DNA of 5,697 bases from positions 1 through 5,697 of the IMG/VR virus record IMGVR_UViG_3300026224_000013. One strand, given 5' to 3'. The DNA is from a virus. Taxonomy: Duplodnaviria; Heunggongvirae; Uroviricota; Caudoviricetes. Numbering within the stretch: position 1 is the stretch's first letter; the number at the start of each line of letters is the position of its first letter. Positions 1-4,996 of the stretch are shown here, piece after piece. The notes beneath the pieces were generated by a model, which had not been told where the DNA came from, searched no databases, and was given only the letters and a program-made list of their open reading frames with translations. Both the position numbers and the translations under genes were made by a program.

Positions 1-171
1 TCTGAGACAACATCTGGCAAGGCTGGGACGGAAGTCACTGTCGTTCTCAAAATCGGTGGAGCTGCATGACAAAGTCATCGGGCATTATCTGAACATAAAA
101 CACTATCAATAAGTTGGAGTCATTACCCTGTTATTGATGATGATATTGACAATAAGATTTATGCCTATGCT

Positions 172-897
172 ATGAATAACGCGATATCGTTTTCAAAAGT
201 TATTAATAACGATATAAAGAATGATAAGCCAGTTGTACTTACCTCTCTTGCTGAGGTTCAGAATGATTTGTGGGCCTATTGTATTAAAGTCCAAAAGGGG
301 GCTGACGTCACTTATTCTTTCCGAAAAATCAGCAGGGGGAAAGTCACAACAAATGAACCACAAAATATGACTCAGCGCGTATTCGCTTTGTTTGATAAAA
401 CAGATAAAGAGTTAAGATCATTTGATGGCAGCGCAGTCAATTTTGATGACAAAATCGATTGTATTTATATAAAAGATCAATTTTATGTATTTCATAAGAA
501 AAGTTTTGAGGCTATTGTAGGCTTGGAGGTTGAGTTTACAGAAGCTGCACAAAAAACATTAAATACAATTAAAGAACTTGATCTTATTGAAGGTTTAGAT
601 GTTATTGAACAAGCTATTCTTCATAAGCCATCACTGAGAAAAATTCTCACTCATATCGCTGAGAAAGGTAACCATACGGCTCTGGAAAAGAATGATGTTC
701 AAGCTATGAATGATGTGTTAAAAATGTTTCAGAACGAAGAGTTTAAGACCAATGAGCATGGTAAATTAGTCATAGAAGATGAGAGGCAAGGAAGAAACTT
801 TCTCAAACTGTTAAATGATTATTATAAACAAGGCATGACTACAAAAAAATACTATGGTACGGATAGCGGAAATGTGATTAACCCTATTAAGGCGTAA
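172..897 (+). CDS. Hypothetical protein, 241 aa, AT-rich orphan ORF (candidate moron/accessory gene; function unknown)
   Basis: Uninterrupted ATG-initiated ORF of 726 nt. Composition is strikingly AT-rich (about 28-30% GC by eye) against roughly 50% GC in the phage genes downstream. Product is Lys/Asn/Asp/Glu-rich with no transmembrane segment and no catalytic motif I can recognise (no Walker A, no HxH/HExxH). No obvious Shine-Dalgarno sequence. Confidence 0.65.
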   Translation: MNNAISFSKVINNDIKNDKPVVLTSLAEVQNDLWAYCIKVQKGADVTYSFRKISRGKVTTNEPQNMTQRVFALFDKTDKELRSFDGSAVNFDDKIDCIYIKDQFYVFHKKSFEAIVGLEVEFTEAAQKTLNTIKELDLIEGLDVIEQAILHKPSLRKILTHIAEKGNHTALEKNDVQAMNDVLKMFQNEEFKTNEHGKLVIEDERQGRNFLKLLNDYYKQGMTTKKYYGTDSGNVINPIKA

Positions 898-1096
898 AGC
901 ATATACTATATCTGGAACTGAAATACCAGCCGCCATCAGAAAGAACTGATGGGGCTTACAAATAGTAAGTAAATATAAAATGTTAAGGTATTTTTCATGC
1001 AAAAATGAAAATCATTGGCACAAATTAGAAACTAAGTAAATTGCTAATACTAATAACTTATTATTCTACTTACTATTTGCATGGAGTTGTTGTGAA

Positions 1097-1130
1097 TTGC
1101 TGGAAAGGTGGGTAATGTTTTTGTAGAATC
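1097..1130 (+). promoter_or_regulatory. Candidate promoter of the hok/mok mRNA
   Basis: TGTAGAAT (TG plus TAGAAT -10 at 1124-1129) with a weak -35 (TGGAAA, 1101-1106). The predicted start region just downstream, GGCGGGTGCTTGAGGCTATCTGCCTC, resembles the 5' leader of plasmid R1 hok mRNA as I recall it. Confidence 0.4.
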
Positions 1131-1182
1131 ACGGCGGGTGCTTGAGGCTATCTGCCTCGGGCACGAACACCAAAGGCAGATA

Positions 1183-1256
1183 GAGAAAAGCCCCAGTTAA
1201 CATTACGCGTCCGGCAAGACGCTTAACATTAATCTGAGGCCAATTTCATGCTTTGC
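1183..1256 (-). ncRNA. sok: Candidate Sok-type antisense RNA (antitoxin of the hok module)
   Basis: Minus-strand promoter-like elements: -35 TTGCCT (complement of 1286-1291), 17-nt spacer, -10 TAACCT (complement of 1263-1268), placed antisense over the mok start and leader as in hok/sok of R1. The minus-strand transcript can form a stem (GGCCUCAG/CUGGGGC with one G-U) ending in a U-rich tract (cttttctct). Exact ends are approximate. Confidence 0.45.
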
Positions 1257-1460
1257 ACATGTAGGTTAGCCTCTTACGTGCCGAAAGGCAAGGAGAAGCA
1301 GGCTATGAAGCAGCAAAAGGCGATGTTAATCGCCCTGATCGTCATCTGTTTAACCGTCATTGTGACGGCACTGGTAACGAGGAAAGACCTCTGCGAGGTA
1401 CGAATCCGAACCGGGCAGACGGAGGTCGCTGTCTTCGTAGACTACGAATCTAGAGAGTAA
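1248..1460 (+). CDS. mok: Mok-like in-frame leader/regulatory ORF overlapping hok (70 aa)
   Basis: ATG at 1248 is in frame with hok and adds 19 N-terminal residues (MLCTCRLASYVPKGKEKQA). This resembles the in-frame MokC extension of chromosomal HokC as I recall it. Translation of this frame is inferred by analogy only. Confidence 0.45.
   Translation: MLCTCRLASYVPKGKEKQAMKQQKAMLIALIVICLTVIVTALVTRKDLCEVRIRTGQTEVAVFVDYESRE
1305..1460 (+). CDS. hok: Hok/Gef-family type I toxin (51 aa small membrane toxin)
   Basis: Translation MKQQKAMLIALIVICLTVIVTALVTRKDLCEVRIRTGQTEVAVFVDYESRE carries the hallmark Hok/Gef/RelF pattern: N-terminal TM helix, TRKxLCE motif, periplasmic tail ending YES. AGGAG-like RBS (aaggagaag) lies 8-16 nt upstream of the ATG. 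Confidence 0.88.
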   Translation: MKQQKAMLIALIVICLTVIVTALVTRKDLCEVRIRTGQTEVAVFVDYESRE

Positions 1461-1469
1461 GAGTGACCA

Positions 1470-1491
1470 GGCGGGAGAGTAATCTCCCGCC
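1470..1491 (+). promoter_or_regulatory. Perfect 9-bp stem-loop in the hok mRNA 3' UTR (candidate fold-back/processing element)
   Basis: GGCGGGAGA-gtaa-TCTCCCGCC is a perfect 9-bp stem with a GNRA-type tetraloop (GUAA), immediately after the hok stop. Hok mRNAs are known to carry 3' structural elements (fbi) that pair with the 5' end. Confidence 0.5.
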
Positions 1492-1530
1492 ACCTCTGAT
1501 GTGTCAGGCATCCTCAATGCACCCACACTT

Positions 1531-1562
1531 AACCCGCTTCGGCGGGTTTTTGTTTTTATTTT
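1531..1562 (+). terminator. Rho-independent terminator of the hok transcript
   Basis: AACCCGC-ttcg-GCGGGTT (7-bp stem, UUCG tetraloop) followed by TTTTGTTTTTATTTT. Confidence 0.75.
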
Positions 1563-1570
1563 CAACGCGT

Positions 1571-1600
1571 TTGAAGTTTTGGATAGTGCCGGAATAGAAT
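1571..1600 (+). promoter_or_regulatory. Candidate sigma70 promoter upstream of the small ORF/DUF1367/YbcO/Q-like gene block
   Basis: -35 TTGAAG (1571-1576), 18-nt spacer, -10 TAGAAT (1595-1600). Sequence-only prediction. Confidence 0.3.
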
Positions 1601-1682
1601 CAAAAATACTTAAGTAGCGCGCAGGGAGAAGAGGGATGGACCCCGAACAGGGGAGTGCTATTTATCTGGAAGGATTCTGAAG

Positions 1683-1856
1683 ATGAAAATCGAAGAATTG
1701 CGTGAAATTTTTAGTGAAGATGGCCTCTATGCTGTGCGCGTTGAGAATGGAGAAGTTATCTACACAACGTTAATTCCTGATGATCATGTGATTTTATCTA
1801 TCGAGGCATTCATTGAATACCTTGAAAGGCTCGGTTTCAAGGTGGTTCGCGAATGA
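1683..1856 (+). CDS. Small hypothetical protein (57 aa), acidic, not in the supplied ORF track
   Basis: ATG at 1683 with GGAAGGA upstream and stop at 1854-1856. Translation is MKIEELREIFSEDGLYAVRVENGEVIYTTLIPDDHVILSIEAFIEYLERLGFKVVRE. GC content and codon use match the downstream phage genes. No family assigned. Confidence 0.45.
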   Translation: MKIEELREIFSEDGLYAVRVENGEVIYTTLIPDDHVILSIEAFIEYLERLGFKVVRE

Positions 1857-1915
1857 GTTATAATTCGTAAGCCAGCCTGAACAACTGGCAACCTACAGCG
1901 CCATTGGAGACAGCA

Positions 1916-2515
1916 ATGGCGCATATACAACTGGTCAAACAAACCTCTTCCGGATTACTTCTCCCGGCGACGCCGGAGAGTTGTGATTTTCTGCATCAAA
2001 TCAAAATAGGCGAGTGGATACACGCTGATTTTAAGCGCGTTCGTAACTACGCATTCCATAAGCGTTTTTTCAAACTTCTGCAACTCGGATTCGATTACTG
2101 GACTCCGGTCGGTGGGGCGATCACACCTCGCGAACGAGAACTGCTGTCTGGTTTCGTGGATTACCTGTGCGAATCAGTTGGTCGGGAACACACACCAGCC
2201 CTGAGTGATGCCGCAGAGCAATATCTAAATACAGTTGCGATACGCAGAACCCGGGATACGGCATTGCTAAAGTCGTTTGAGGCTTTCCGCGAGTGGGTAA
2301 CCATTCAGGCCGGATTTTACACCGAGCATCTTTATCCTGATGGTAGCCGTGGGCGTCGGGCGAAATCTATCGCGTTTGCGAATATGGACGAAACCGTGTT
2401 TCAGCAGGTTTATAAATCTGTACTGAATGTGCTGTGGAACTGGATTCTGTTCCGTAAATTTTCCTCTCCGGAACAAGTCGAAAATGTGGCCGCGCAGCTG
2501 CTGGAGTTTGCGTAA
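1916..2515 (+). CDS. Lambdoid nin-region protein, DUF1367-like (199 aa from ATG 1916; the track ORF begins at TTG 1904)
   Basis: Long ORF with GGAGA RBS 5 nt upstream of ATG 1916. Its stop TAA (2513-2515) overlaps the ATG of the next gene. Family assignment is from memory of prophage genes that precede YbcO-like and Q genes, so it is tentative; the coding call itself is firmer. Confidence 0.7.
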   Translation: MAHIQLVKQTSSGLLLPATPESCDFLHQIKIGEWIHADFKRVRNYAFHKRFFKLLQLGFDYWTPVGGAITPRERELLSGFVDYLCESVGREHTPALSDAAEQYLNTVAIRRTRDTALLKSFEAFREWVTIQAGFYTEHLYPDGSRGRRAKSIAFANMDETVFQQVYKSVLNVLWNWILFRKFSSPEQVENVAAQLLEFA

Positions 2516-2805
2516 TGGTGGACTTACGTAAAGCGACGCGGGGGCAGATGTGCACCGTCAGAATTCCTGGCTACTGCAATCACGATCCGGAAACGTCTGT
2601 GCTGGCGCATTACCGACTGGCGGGAACGTGCGGAACAGCGATAAAGCCACACGATATGCAGGCAGCGATTGCCTGTAGCTCGTGCCACGATTTAATCGAC
2701 GGGCGGGTAAAAACCAGCGATTACACCAAAGAAGAATTACGCCTGATGCATGCAGAAGGTGTTTTTCGCACACAAGAAATCTGGAGAAAGGAGGGATATT
2801 TATGA
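2515..2805 (+). CDS. YbcO-like (DUF1364) Cys-rich putative nuclease of lambdoid prophages (96 aa)
   Basis: Translation MVDLRKATRGQMCTVRIPGYCNHDPETSVLAHYRL...IACSSCHDLIDGR has the size and conserved Cys/His spacing I associate with E. coli DLP12 YbcO. Start overlaps the upstream stop (TAATG) and the stop overlaps the downstream start (ATGA). Confidence 0.75.
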   Translation: MVDLRKATRGQMCTVRIPGYCNHDPETSVLAHYRLAGTCGTAIKPHDMQAAIACSSCHDLIDGRVKTSDYTKEELRLMHAEGVFRTQEIWRKEGYL

Positions 2806-3338
2806 TTTACCCAACGAATACAGGAAAAAGCGGAGAACACCTTCGTCTCACCACGCTGGAAAGTGTCTGGATTCAGGGAAAACTACGTATGTGGGGGCGC
2901 TGGTCGTATATTGGCGGCGGCAGGTCAGGGAATATGTTTAACCAGTTGCTGGCATCCCAAAAAATGACAAAAACAGCCATCAATGAAGCCCTGCGCAGAT
3001 TGAAAAAAGCGGGAATTGATAAACCAGAGTTGGAAGCATTTTTGCGTGAGATGATCGAAGGAAAGCAAAAAAGCTGGTTAACTCACTGCACTGATGCAGA
3101 GGCACTAAAAATTGATAGTGTTATAGGTGAAGTTCTGGCGGATCATCCAGGACTACTAAATGTCCTGAGTCAGCGTTATGTGGGGCGAGGGATGAGTAAG
3201 AGAAGGATGGCAGAGTTATTAAACGAACAGTACCCAGAGTGGGCGTTGATTACATGCCGACGTCGTGTTGAGCAGTGGTTGCGTGTTGCTGAGTTCATTT
3301 TGTATTCACCTATGAGAGAAGCGTTCGATTATGCTTAA
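2802..3338 (+). CDS. Putative late-gene antiterminator, Q-like (178 aa from ATG 2802)
   Basis: ATG 2802 has a strong AGGAGGG RBS and overlaps the YbcO-like stop. The gene is the last before a promoter/terminator pair, the tRNAs and the lysis genes, which is where Q sits in lambdoid phages. Family identity is inferred mainly from position and size, not a recognised motif. The longer track ORF from 2682 is rejected as a 5' extension. Confidence 0.55.
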   Translation: MIYPTNTGKSGEHLRLTTLESVWIQGKLRMWGRWSYIGGGRSGNMFNQLLASQKMTKTAINEALRRLKKAGIDKPELEAFLREMIEGKQKSWLTHCTDAEALKIDSVIGEVLADHPGLLNVLSQRYVGRGMSKRRMAELLNEQYPEWALITCRRRVEQWLRVAEFILYSPMREAFDYA

Positions 3339-3345
3339 AAAATCA

Positions 3346-3374
3346 TTGCAAAATGAGCCACAAACTGCTTCAAT
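3346..3374 (+). promoter_or_regulatory. Candidate late promoter (pR'-like) immediately downstream of the Q-like gene
   Basis: -35 TTGCAA (3346-3351), 17-nt spacer, -10 TTCAAT (3369-3374), about 60 nt upstream of a strong intrinsic terminator. This matches the pR'-to-tR' short-transcript layout of lambdoid phages. Weak consensus match. Confidence 0.25.
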
Positions 3375-3434
3375 TTTGGTACGCTTCGCAAAGCTGTATC
3401 GCGAGGCGAATCAAGCGCAATTGAACTTTAATAG

Positions 3435-3462
3435 AACCCGCCATCGAGCGGGTTTTGTTGTT
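3435..3462 (+). terminator. Rho-independent terminator (candidate tR')
   Basis: AACCCGC-catcga-GCGGGTT (7-bp stem) followed by TTGTTGTTTCTG U-rich tract. Confidence 0.55.
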
Positions 3463-3595
3463 TCTGCGGTGTTATATAAGAAACGACATTTAATAATCTC
3501 CTTCAAAATAAATTTGTTTATATATTGTCATGTATATTTTAAGTGAAAGTGAAATATTCACATAAAATAAAAACATATAAATAAATTTACATAAC

Positions 3596-3624
3596 TTGAC
3601 GCAAAGTGTTGTTGCGATTGGAAT
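3596..3624 (+). promoter_or_regulatory. Candidate promoter with AT-rich UP-like region upstream of the tRNA genes (alternative pR' candidate)
   Basis: -35 TTGACG (3596-3601), 17-nt spacer, -10 TGGAAT (3619-3624), preceded by about 130 bp of extremely AT-rich DNA (3470-3595) and about 75 nt upstream of the first tRNA. Confidence 0.3.
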
Positions 3625-3702
3625 ATTAAATCGTATCATCGAAAACGGTTCTGAGGGGGAACTCTTCTTTGCTCGGTGATATCGCTCCCCTGAAGAACCA
3701 AT

Positions 3703-3778
<76 letters not shown>

Positions 3779-3781
3779 TAT

Positions 3782-3856
<75 letters not shown>

Positions 3857-4156
3857 GAGAAACAAGCCTTATTGTATTGCGGCACTGGCGTATTTTTTAT
3901 TACGTGGGAGCAGGTTGTATTGAAAAAGCATTCTGTTCTCTGGCTATGATTTGAGGCCGGGTGTAGCCTCAGTGCTGATTTTTTACGGCAGCAGAATGGT
4001 GCATTATCGGTGGAGATTTTGTATTTCCTGGCAGGGTCGGTGATGCATCATTCTGGTGTTGTAAAAGCACCACAGAGGCGTTCCTCAGTGCGAGGGTGGT
4101 TTAAAGAGTCGGTTTAGCGGGAAACCACAGTATCCATACAGAACGGAATACTTCGG

Positions 4157-4182
4157 GAGGCACCCGACGCCTCGATTTTATT
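4157..4182 (+). terminator. Terminator-like hairpin with U-tract inside the non-coding block
   Basis: GAGGC-acccgac-GCCTC (5-bp stem) followed by GATTTTATT. Confidence 0.4.
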
Positions 4183-4212
4183 ACAATTAAAAATTCATCC
4201 CTTGCATTGACC

Positions 4213-4241
4213 AACCGCCTCCACCAGGCGGTTTTTTTTAT
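4213..4241 (+). terminator. Strong rho-independent terminator inside the non-coding block
   Basis: AACCGCCT-ccacc-AGGCGGTT (8-bp GC-rich stem) followed by TTTTTTATT. Confidence 0.7.
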
Positions 4242-4421
4242 TCTGAATTCAGTTTCTTCATGGCTCGCTACGGCGGGCCTTTTTCATATCCGCGCCACGC
4301 CCGGCGCACATCAAAAACCACAGAGCCTTTCAGGGGTGAGCTTACGGGATGGTCAGTGTGACTTTCTCTGTGGGCTGGTCACCCCCGGGCGGAGGCTCAC
4401 CCACTAAAAGGAAAAGTCACG

Positions 4422-4847
4422 ATGTTTGGTATTTTCAAAAAGAAAACCCGCAAGGCCATTACCGAAGTGAAGAAGATGGAGAACCGCGACGCAGTGGAGG
4501 CGACCGTCTGGGGTGCGTATTCCATTGCATACGCTGACGGCACCTGCGACGCGAAAGAAATCGCAGTACTGGAGAAAACCATTGCAGCACTTCCTGCCTT
4601 TGCACCGTTCTCCGGCGAGATTGCACAAATGAGTGCAAATATCCGCGCCCGTTATGAAGCGTCGCCGCGCTCTGCTAATGCTGAAGCCCTTCGCCAGCTG
4701 GCTGATGTTGCCGGTACTGATGACGCAGTTAATGTGCTGTGCCTGTGTCTGGATATCGCTGACCAGGATGGCATTGGTCCGGATGAAGAAGCACAGCTCA
4801 AGAAAATTGCTCAGGCGCTTCAGCTACCGCTGGAGCAGTACCTGTGA
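4422..4847 (+). CDS. TerB-like (tellurite-resistance TerB domain-like) protein, 141 aa
   Basis: ATG 4422 with AAAGGAAAAG upstream. Soluble, acidic, mostly helical-looking sequence with paired Asp-rich segments (AYADGTCDAKEIAVLEKTIAA... and ...LCLCLDIADQDGIGPDEEAQLKKIAQAL) as in TerB-fold proteins. The family call is from pattern memory, not a search. Confidence 0.65.
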   Translation: MFGIFKKKTRKAITEVKKMENRDAVEATVWGAYSIAYADGTCDAKEIAVLEKTIAALPAFAPFSGEIAQMSANIRARYEASPRSANAEALRQLADVAGTDDAVNVLCLCLDIADQDGIGPDEEAQLKKIAQALQLPLEQYL

Positions 4848-4996
4848 AAAGTGCGCGTCTTGTACTGGCTGCCATCCTGCTGTTTCTGGTAGTGGCGGTG
4901 GATTTCACCGGACGCCTGATGTCAGTGCTTGCCGATGGCGTGCTGGTGGCGATGGCGCTGGTCGTGCTCCGGCCTTTACTGCGTAAATCTGAATAA
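4844..4996 (+). CDS. Putative small membrane protein (50 aa, GTG start overlapping the upstream stop), not in the ORF track
   Basis: GTG 4844-4846 overlaps the TGA 4845-4847 of the TerB-like gene (GTGA). Translation VKSARLVLAAILLFLVVAVDFTGRLMSVLADGVLVAMALVVLRPLLRKSE has two hydrophobic stretches and a basic C-terminus. An internal ATG (about 4907-4909, same frame) would give only 29 aa. Confidence 0.35.
   Translation: MKSARLVLAAILLFLVVAVDFTGRLMSVLADGVLVAMALVVLRPLLRKSE

Follow-up and report, generated by a model that had tools for sequence, protein, structure and literature searches.

The DNA analyzed here is a stretch of 5,697 nt of viral origin (the window), and its positions 1097 to 1562 raise two questions: whether a complete type I toxin-antitoxin module of the hok/mok/sok type resides there or a degenerate copy, and what such a module would do for a prophage. 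We consider it very probable that an intact hok/mok/sok module of the hokW/hokD lineage occupies this region, as a moron in the early-right part of a lambdoid prophage. An earlier note, made from the letters alone, had proposed a complete module embedded in a prophage, with a promoter-like element, a leader resembling that of R1, a 51-aa Hok/Gef-family toxin, a GNRA-capped 9-bp hairpin, and an intrinsic terminator. That description holds: every part it listed is present, at or within a few bases of where it had been placed, the promoter-like element, hairpin, and terminator having been located by scans, and the parts are accompanied by Rfam, Pfam, and PHROG matches and by a lambdoid gene context. 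To judge from its sequence, the module looks functional. The locus is already known and annotated and is of a common kind; its biological role in the prophage is what we infer below.

Membership of the family is established at both the RNA and the protein level. The Rfam sok/hok-leader model (RF01794) matches 1136-1310 on the plus strand over the full model (1-157), with 113.2 bits against a gathering score of 59 and an E-value of 5e-26, and both the sequence and the structure of the conserved hok leader are therefore recognized. Given that this match lies on the plus strand, it identifies the hok mRNA leader and is alone no proof of an antisense gene. The leader sequence GCTTGAGGCTATCTGCCTC at 1140-1158 is identical to the R1-type leader at 18 of 19 positions, which bears out the likeness to R1 first proposed. 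For the protein, Pfam HOK_GEF matches the 51-aa Hok (E-value of 9.8e-23, 79.9 bits against a cut-off of 22) and PHROG 251, "MokW-like host killing," matches it as well (E-value of 1.3e-32); these matches and the identity to HokW described below identify a small (~50 aa) Hok/Gef membrane toxin. The Rfam and Pfam E-values, taken with z-scores of -8.1 (mRNA fold) and -5.1 (Sok fold), rule out chance. We ascribe the sub-threshold Rfam matches to Trp_leader, STnc100, CsrC, mir-2063, and Plastid-ycf2 to chance or to tRNA antisense.

The sense-strand transcript and its reading frames are laid out as follows.

1101-1129, plus strand: hok/mok mRNA promoter from the consensus scan, with -35 TGGAAA (1101-1106), a 17-nt spacer, and -10 TAGAAT (1124-1129).
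1136-1556, plus strand: full-length hok/mok mRNA of ~420 nt (421), with its probable start at 1136-1137 and its probable end at the terminator T run.
1236-1239, plus strand: mok Shine-Dalgarno (SD) sequence GAGG, conserved among alleles and homologues.
1248-1460, plus strand: mok leader open reading frame from the ORF list, 70 aa, in frame with hok and identical to MokW at 67 of 70 residues.
1305-1460, plus strand: hok toxin gene, 51 aa, with SD AAGGAG at 1290-1295, a HOK_GEF match, and identity to HokW at 49 of 51 residues.
1531-1556, plus strand: intrinsic terminator from the terminator scan, AACCCGC-UUCG-GCGGGUU (stem 1531-1548) followed by a T run.

The consensus promoter scan is weak alone, with three sites found against 0.8 expected. 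The hok -10 TAGAAT aligns with the -10 of K-12 hokC (TATAAT) and of R1-type hok (TATGAT) and is common to hokW, whereas the -35 region varies from one phage context to another. The start of the mRNA was placed where the Rfam model begins, at 1136, which corresponds to the position where the R1-type mRNA was taken to begin. At the other end, the terminator is identical in K-12 hokD and Qin-type loci, whereas the terminator and downstream DNA of the Sp5 hokW locus differ from 1535 on.

The hokW-mokW-sokW locus of phages 933W and Sp5 (VT2-Sakai, or Sakai prophage 5) shares 94.2% DNA identity with the window over 1123-1534 and has the same architecture, in which a 70-aa mok is in frame with a 51-aa hok and is accompanied by a 71-nt antisense RNA; both loci are prophage-borne. 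Transfer of the VT2-Sakai annotation places sokW at 1186-1256 on the minus strand, mokW at 1248-1460, and hokW at 1305-1460. The two Hok proteins differ solely in their last two residues, RE here and EK in HokW, and 7 of the 24 nucleotide differences within 1123-1534 are clustered at 1240-1255, in the 5' tail of Sok and the start of mok. HokW is toxic and is neutralized by sokW (PMC8621323). By analogy, based on the 49 of 51 residues identical to HokW, Hok of the window would be toxic and would be neutralized by Sok, with RNase III-dependent decay of the mRNA. The earlier reading had overlooked that the locus is essentially hokW/hokD, annotated and partly characterized, and that the role of the 9-bp hairpin has been defined in R1.

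The mok and hok genes share a reading frame and a stop codon, with 57 nt between their starts, and mok has its own SD sequence. The in-frame arrangement had been likened to K-12 mokC/hokC and set apart from that of R1, and the ORF list and the K-12 locus agree on this point: in hokC/mokC/sokC (gef), mok is likewise in frame and has its stop codon in common with hok. That locus is a chromosomal core locus, and its Hok is ~78-80% identical to Hok of the window. The R1 locus (hok/mok/sok, or parB) differs in being carried on a plasmid rather than a prophage, in a Hok protein of only remote similarity (HokW and R1 Hok share 44% identity), and in its mok frame, given that the R1 mok ATG at 116 and hok ATG at 174 are 58 nt apart and thus out of frame (PMC9841398). 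An IncFII plasmid encoding a Hok identical to that of R1 was used as our R1-type sequence, alongside the published R1 coordinates, and in this allele the spacing is 57 nt and mok is in frame. Close alleles thus differ in their mok frame, in agreement with published work in which translation of mok up to the start of hok is what matters, and not the Mok product. The GAGG motif is also the mok SD of R1 (PMC9841398); it shows zero entropy among 10 close alleles, occurs as (C/T)GAGG in 32 of 33 homologues, and is retained together with the mok ATG in nearly all of them.

On the opposite strand, two elements were placed.

1186-1256, minus strand: Sok antisense RNA, ~71 nt, with coordinates transferred from the sokW misc_RNA of AP000422.
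1263-1291, minus strand: Sok promoter, with -35 TTGCCT (1291 to 1286), a 17-nt spacer, and -10 TAACCT (1268 to 1263), for a start near 1256.

These features are consistent with a predicted cis-encoded Sok that has its own promoter and is complementary to the region where mok translation starts. Its span agrees with the 1183-1256 suggested earlier, and the K-12 sokC is annotated at the equivalent position. The RNA consists of a 5' single-stranded tail (1256 to 1240), a long hairpin, and a U-rich tail, and it covers both the SD sequence and the start codon of mok; its fold has a free energy of -31.7 kcal/mol (z of -5.1), and its hairpin is identical to that of sokW but longer than that of R1 Sok or sokC. 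The earlier note had also described an antisense promoter positioned for a Sok-like RNA, and the minus-strand promoter found there is identical to the promoter region of sokW over the 30 nt of the published hokW probe YO-597 (Takada et al. 2021, PMC8621323). As we read primers YO-421/422, the "pro-less" mutant of sokW changes TAACCTA to GAGCCGG, i.e., the Sok -10, and this promoter mutant loses antitoxin activity (PMC8621323). A -10 of the form TAnnCT and a -35 of the form TTGnCn are retained in most of the 33 homologues, whereas sokC has a different -10. The consensus promoter scan, which required 9 of 12 matches, did not detect the Sok promoter because it scores only 7/12, a score shared by the R1-type Sok promoter (TTGCGC/TATCCT).

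For a long-range RNA switch of the hok type, the following elements were identified.

1136-1147, plus strand: tac element, GGGUGCUUGAGG, whose partner is fbi in the full-length mRNA; in the open form it pairs with 1188-1194.
1188-1194, plus strand: upstream complementary box or anti-SD, AAGCCCC, partner of the mok SD in the closed form and of tac in the open form.
1470-1491, plus strand: 9-bp hairpin with a GUAA loop, GGCGGGAGA/TCTCCCGCC, 100% complementary.
1512-1524, plus strand: fbi (fold-back inhibition) element, CCUCAAUGCACCC, pairing with 1136-1147.

The same elements are found in R1, which has tac/fbi, the anti-SD, the mok SD GAGG, the position of the Sok promoter, and the 3' protective hairpin in common with the window, together with the leader motif GCUUGAGGCU(A/U)UCUGCCUC. 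Folding had been proposed as a check on 5'-3' pairing, and the minimum free energy (MFE) structure of the full-length mRNA 1136-1556 (-179.7 kcal/mol, z of -8.1) contains the tac/fbi clamp, with 1136-1147 paired to 1512-1524 over 12 bp, and the mok SD is paired to 1190-1194 (1190-1192 with 1238-1240). The tac stem, for its part, belongs to the consensus structure of RF01794.

To examine the conservation of this structure, 47 related loci were collected from species-representative genomes, and 33 distinct full-length mRNAs were aligned with MAFFT; these derive from Escherichia, Shigella, Kluyvera, Citrobacter, Photorhabdus, Pantoea, and the IncFII R1-type plasmid. When the structure of the window was laid on the alignment, 82% of cells were paired, compared to 38-49% in slid controls, and 40 pairs were changed on both sides, compared to 14-22 in the controls. 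The tac/fbi helix was 89.6% paired, with U-A and C-G covarying in a ratio of 19:11, C-G standing in place of U-A in 11 sequences. In the MAFFT alignment, the inner part of fbi is misplaced in some genera (by one column in Photorhabdus), such that pairing in this half of the helix is undercounted, and the 5'-3' duplex was therefore also folded sequence by sequence. A duplex of ~12 bp was obtained in all 33 homologues, at -17 to -27 kcal/mol, and that of the window (-21.5 kcal/mol) was more stable than the shuffled mean (-13.6 kcal/mol). Long-range closure is thus seen in the MFE structure, in covariation, and in per-sequence duplexes.

The second state of the switch, in which the RNA would refold to an open, translatable form after 3' trimming, was approached by constrained folding. 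In the full-length RNA, adopting the open tac-stem form costs 13.2 kcal/mol relative to the closed form, but in the 3'-trimmed RNA (1136-1496) the open form lies only 1.3 kcal/mol above the MFE. The MFE of the trimmed RNA shows a 5' metastable hairpin and not the tac stem, as does that of the R1-type control in silico; the modeled refolding is, therefore, supportive rather than decisive. The 9-bp hairpin, a stable stem-loop behind the stop codon, was 94.8% paired across the homologues with four covarying pairs. It is the counterpart of the stem-loop that protects the 3' end of the processed mRNA in R1, and here it would end a truncated hok mRNA of ~360 nt. For the equivalent R1 stem, 19 loss-of-function substitutions are known; they disrupt a C-G pair, and the truncated mRNA is no longer formed (PMC9841398).

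A degenerate leader or antisense region, as reported for some chromosomal hok remnants, had been named as the finding that would speak against a complete module, and this check was negative. In K-12, hokD (relF) of the cryptic Qin prophage belongs to the same lineage and lies in the same neighborhood, with hok followed by rem, and its fbi and terminator are near-identical to those of the window. However, the alignment of K-12 hokD with the window begins only at the hok SD: just the hok SD, coding region, and 3' untranslated region are kept, while the promoter, tac, Sok, and mok have been replaced by relBE, with relE in place of the leader. Its Hok also ends in TAYEPEE, compared to VDYESRE here. 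Other copies have decayed differently, with IS186 having replaced the fbi region in K-12 hokC. One further E. coli genome copy (L013) is degenerate and has no 5' motif. None of the lesions of these three copies occurs in the window, and the prophage copy keeps everything that K-12 hokD has lost. We considered that the locus could be a degenerate remnant like K-12 hokD, and we rejected this idea because the window aligns with full-length loci throughout.

The module sits within recognizable lambdoid genes. Downstream of it are a 57-aa Rem-family ORF, a NinB/Orf-like gene (DUF1367), a YbcO/HNH gene, and a Q-like antiterminator, followed further on by tRNA-Thr, tRNA-Gly, a TerB-like moron, and a holin. 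Upstream, a 241-aa ORF (172-897) matches residues 100-340 of a KwaB-like protein of 340 aa with 99% identity, and positions 1-127 are the end of an IS1, 96% identical to IS1A, that stops exactly at the IS terminus; kwaB is therefore truncated by IS1. In all eight contigs encoding an identical Mok-Hok, the module follows the replication genes and precedes Q, co-oriented with them, and in four of the eight an intact Kiwa (KwaA-KwaB) pair lies directly upstream. Two of these contigs are 99.5% identical to window positions 128-4243.

The locus is also widely distributed. At least 80% of window positions 1000-1700 is held by 1,572 of 5,426 complete E. coli genomes, where it is annotated as hokD and rem, and 79 phage records contain the module. 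The exact 51-aa Hok occurs on at least 1,000 public contigs and has a MULTISPECIES RefSeq entry, and the exact 70-aa Mok-Hok product occurs on at least 108 contigs. A 2026 preprint catalogued 44,248 Hok homologues and found them enriched in prophages. The locus carries little weight as a discovery, belonging to a family that is among the best-studied RNA-regulated toxin-antitoxin systems, and its nearest relative, hokW-sokW, had been annotated in 933W and was studied by experiment in 2021. For a choice among the roles proposed for prophage hok/sok (lysis aid, addiction, and phage exclusion), the window offers no better test than existing strains. Its value is as a clean full-length example of the hokD lineage, given that the K-12 reference copy is a leaderless remnant. 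The NCBI annotation pipeline names the E. coli counterparts hokD, and such labels hide the mok and Sok parts.

How the module would work can be proposed from the R1 and hokW paradigms; the sequence and structure prerequisites of each step were checked in the window, and the dynamics are modeled on those systems. The weak constitutive promoter at 1101-1129 would give rise to the full-length mRNA of ~420 nt, in which the 5' tac (1136-1147) would be clamped on the 3' fbi (1512-1524) and the mok SD (1236-1239) sequestered by the anti-SD (1188-1194), such that the closed mRNA would permit neither translation nor Sok binding. Slow 3'-exonucleolytic trimming would remove fbi and halt at the 9-bp hairpin (1470-1491), whereupon the 5' end would refold onto the anti-SD and free the mok translation start region. 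During normal prophage transcription, the ~71-nt Sok (1256 to 1186, from the promoter at 1291 to 1263) would pair with this region, blocking translation of mok and hence the coupled translation of hok, and would trigger RNase III cleavage. Once Sok synthesis stops, processed mRNA would accumulate, mok and hok would be translated, and the 51-aa Hok would damage the inner membrane.

By analogy with hokW, the module is most likely activated upon prophage induction, where it would help lysis and phage release; addiction or stabilization is the main alternative. HokW is made after mitomycin C treatment in a RecA-dependent manner, and phage release drops two-fold when the locus is deleted (PMC8621323). 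These results for hokW-sokW are the only ones to bear directly on the role of a nearly identical locus. The Sp5 hokW locus sits elsewhere, near the right end of its prophage, whereas the module of the window lies between the replication genes and Q, and so the role of hokW may not transfer. The position between the replication genes and Q and the orientation shared with the early-right operon could, speculatively, wire the module to prophage induction: antiterminated early read-through would run against the convergent Sok promoter and silence Sok, leading to timed Hok, while the hypervariable Sok 5' tail (1241-1255) would prevent cross-talk between co-resident hok/sok copies. We think this idea improbable; if it were correct, prophage induction would be converted into timed Hok production.

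We hold it possible, and on balance unlikely, that the main role is addiction or prophage stabilization, whereby loss of the element would deplete the short-lived Sok and Hok made from the stable mRNA would kill the cell. This is the established mechanism of R1 hok/sok, all of the RNA elements for a delayed-activation switch are present in the window, and the depositors of 933W and VT2-Sakai annotate mokW/hokW with "prophage maintenance." However, mis-segregation does not eliminate an element present in a single chromosomal copy, and the chromosomal loci that were tested showed no post-segregational killing.

Abortive infection or exclusion, in which an incoming phage would shut off host transcription, deplete Sok, and release Hok, appears quite unlikely as the main role. 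An observation in its favor, cited in the literature, is that R1 hok/sok on a high-copy plasmid cut T4 plating by 42% and plaque size by ~85%, although the effect on T4 was modest and required a high copy number. Moreover, a published survey found no enrichment of hok beside defense systems, no PADLOC model matches the prophage Hok, and the measured effect of hokW favored phage release.

[quoted passage not shown] Against this reading, no regulatory element has been lost from conservation, the RNA switch bears the mark of selection in its compensatory changes across genera, HokW with the same C-terminal VDYES is toxic, and native HokW is made from its prophage after induction. Activation upon induction thus remains our preferred reading of the role.

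One further element lies within the hok coding region.

1438-1452, plus strand: candidate TadA A-to-I editing site in the full-length MFE structure, a 4-bp stem with the 7-nt loop CUACGAA containing the Tyr47 codon UAC.

We take the loop CUACGAA to be identical to the anticodon loop of tRNA-Arg(ACG), and editing at this candidate site would change Tyr to Cys. The TACGAA of the loop is invariant in all 33 homologues, and the stem covaries, with CG and UA in a ratio of 16:16. Editing has been reported for hokB, hokC, hokD, and hokE (bioRxiv 10.1101/2025.08.07.668861).

The hok gene in the window likely contains an A-to-I editing site at 1438-1452, at which tyrosine would be recoded to cysteine. 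The Tyr47 codon UAC is located there within a 7-nt loop, CUACGAA, carried on a 4-bp stem. TACGAA was unchanged in 33 of the 33 homologues (distinct full-length hok mRNAs from six genera and an IncFII plasmid), and the stem under the loop covaries among them. Its sequence matches that of the anticodon loop in tRNA-Arg(ACG), the TadA substrate. A-to-I editing with Tyr-to-Cys recoding has been reported for hokB, hokC, hokD, and hokE (bioRxiv 10.1101/2025.08.07.668861).

Nowhere in the mRNA does a 15-nt stretch vary more than at window positions 1241-1255, which hold the 5' tail of Sok and the first mok codons. In a comparison of 10 closely related but distinct alleles, all with 86% identity or more, the mean entropy was 0.92 bits at 1241-1255 versus 0.18 overall, and the adjoining Sok hairpin and mok Shine-Dalgarno sequence were almost invariant. 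This variability could be due to relaxed constraint or to selection that keeps the antisense RNAs of co-resident copies specific.

Upstream of hok/sok, window positions 1-127 are the terminal 127 bp of IS1 (96% identity to K-12 IS1A) and stop exactly at the end of the element. The insertion site was a kwaB-like gene; the region adjoining the IS1 end (128-897) includes an ORF at 172-897 that corresponds to residues 100-340 of a 340-aa KwaB-like protein of the Kiwa defense system, with 99% identity. Since IS1 lies inside this gene and only residues 100-340 are left, the Kiwa system beside hok is disrupted in the window. Intact relatives were found in four contigs (L057, L059, L060, and L061) whose Mok-Hok protein is identical to that of the window. 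Each carries a complete KwaA-KwaB pair directly upstream of, and co-oriented with, hok/sok (about 6011-8213 in each), and the genes sit together, with the replication genes to one side and the nin/Q region to the other. Kiwa plus hok/sok thus looks like a recurrent moron cluster of lambdoid prophages.

The NCBI labels for the exact 70-aa Mok-Hok product include Salmonella enterica serovar Typhi assemblies, E. coli, and Shigella, and suggest that the same prophage module may span genera. Decayed copies of this hok lineage were also observed: a Kluyvera sp. locus (L039) has a relE-hok fusion resembling K-12 hokD, and in an E. coli locus (L013/L014) the 5' tac motif is replaced. These copies are useful contrasts to the intact locus in the window.

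Downstream of hok, the following features were assigned:
1683-1856, 57-aa ORF with a match to PHROG 340
3703-3778, tRNA-Thr(TGT), phage-borne
3782-3856, tRNA-Gly(TCC), phage-borne
4422-4847, TerB-like ORF, PHROG 632 "tellurite resistance" moron

At the position equivalent to the first of these, the related locus L062 encodes a 57-aa product with the Pfam Rem family. K-12 Rem is 83 aa, whereas the ORF in the window is shorter, and homology between the window and the Qin-type rem locus stops near 1697-1750. The two tRNA genes are located between a Q-like antiterminator and the lysis genes, the same position at which Stx phages carry tRNAs and stx. The segment at 4244-4991, with the TerB-like ORF, is missing in the closest relatives. 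Given that L060 and L061 match window positions 128-4243 at 99.5% and pick up again at 4992 at about 87%, this gap indicates a mosaic replacement upstream of the holin.
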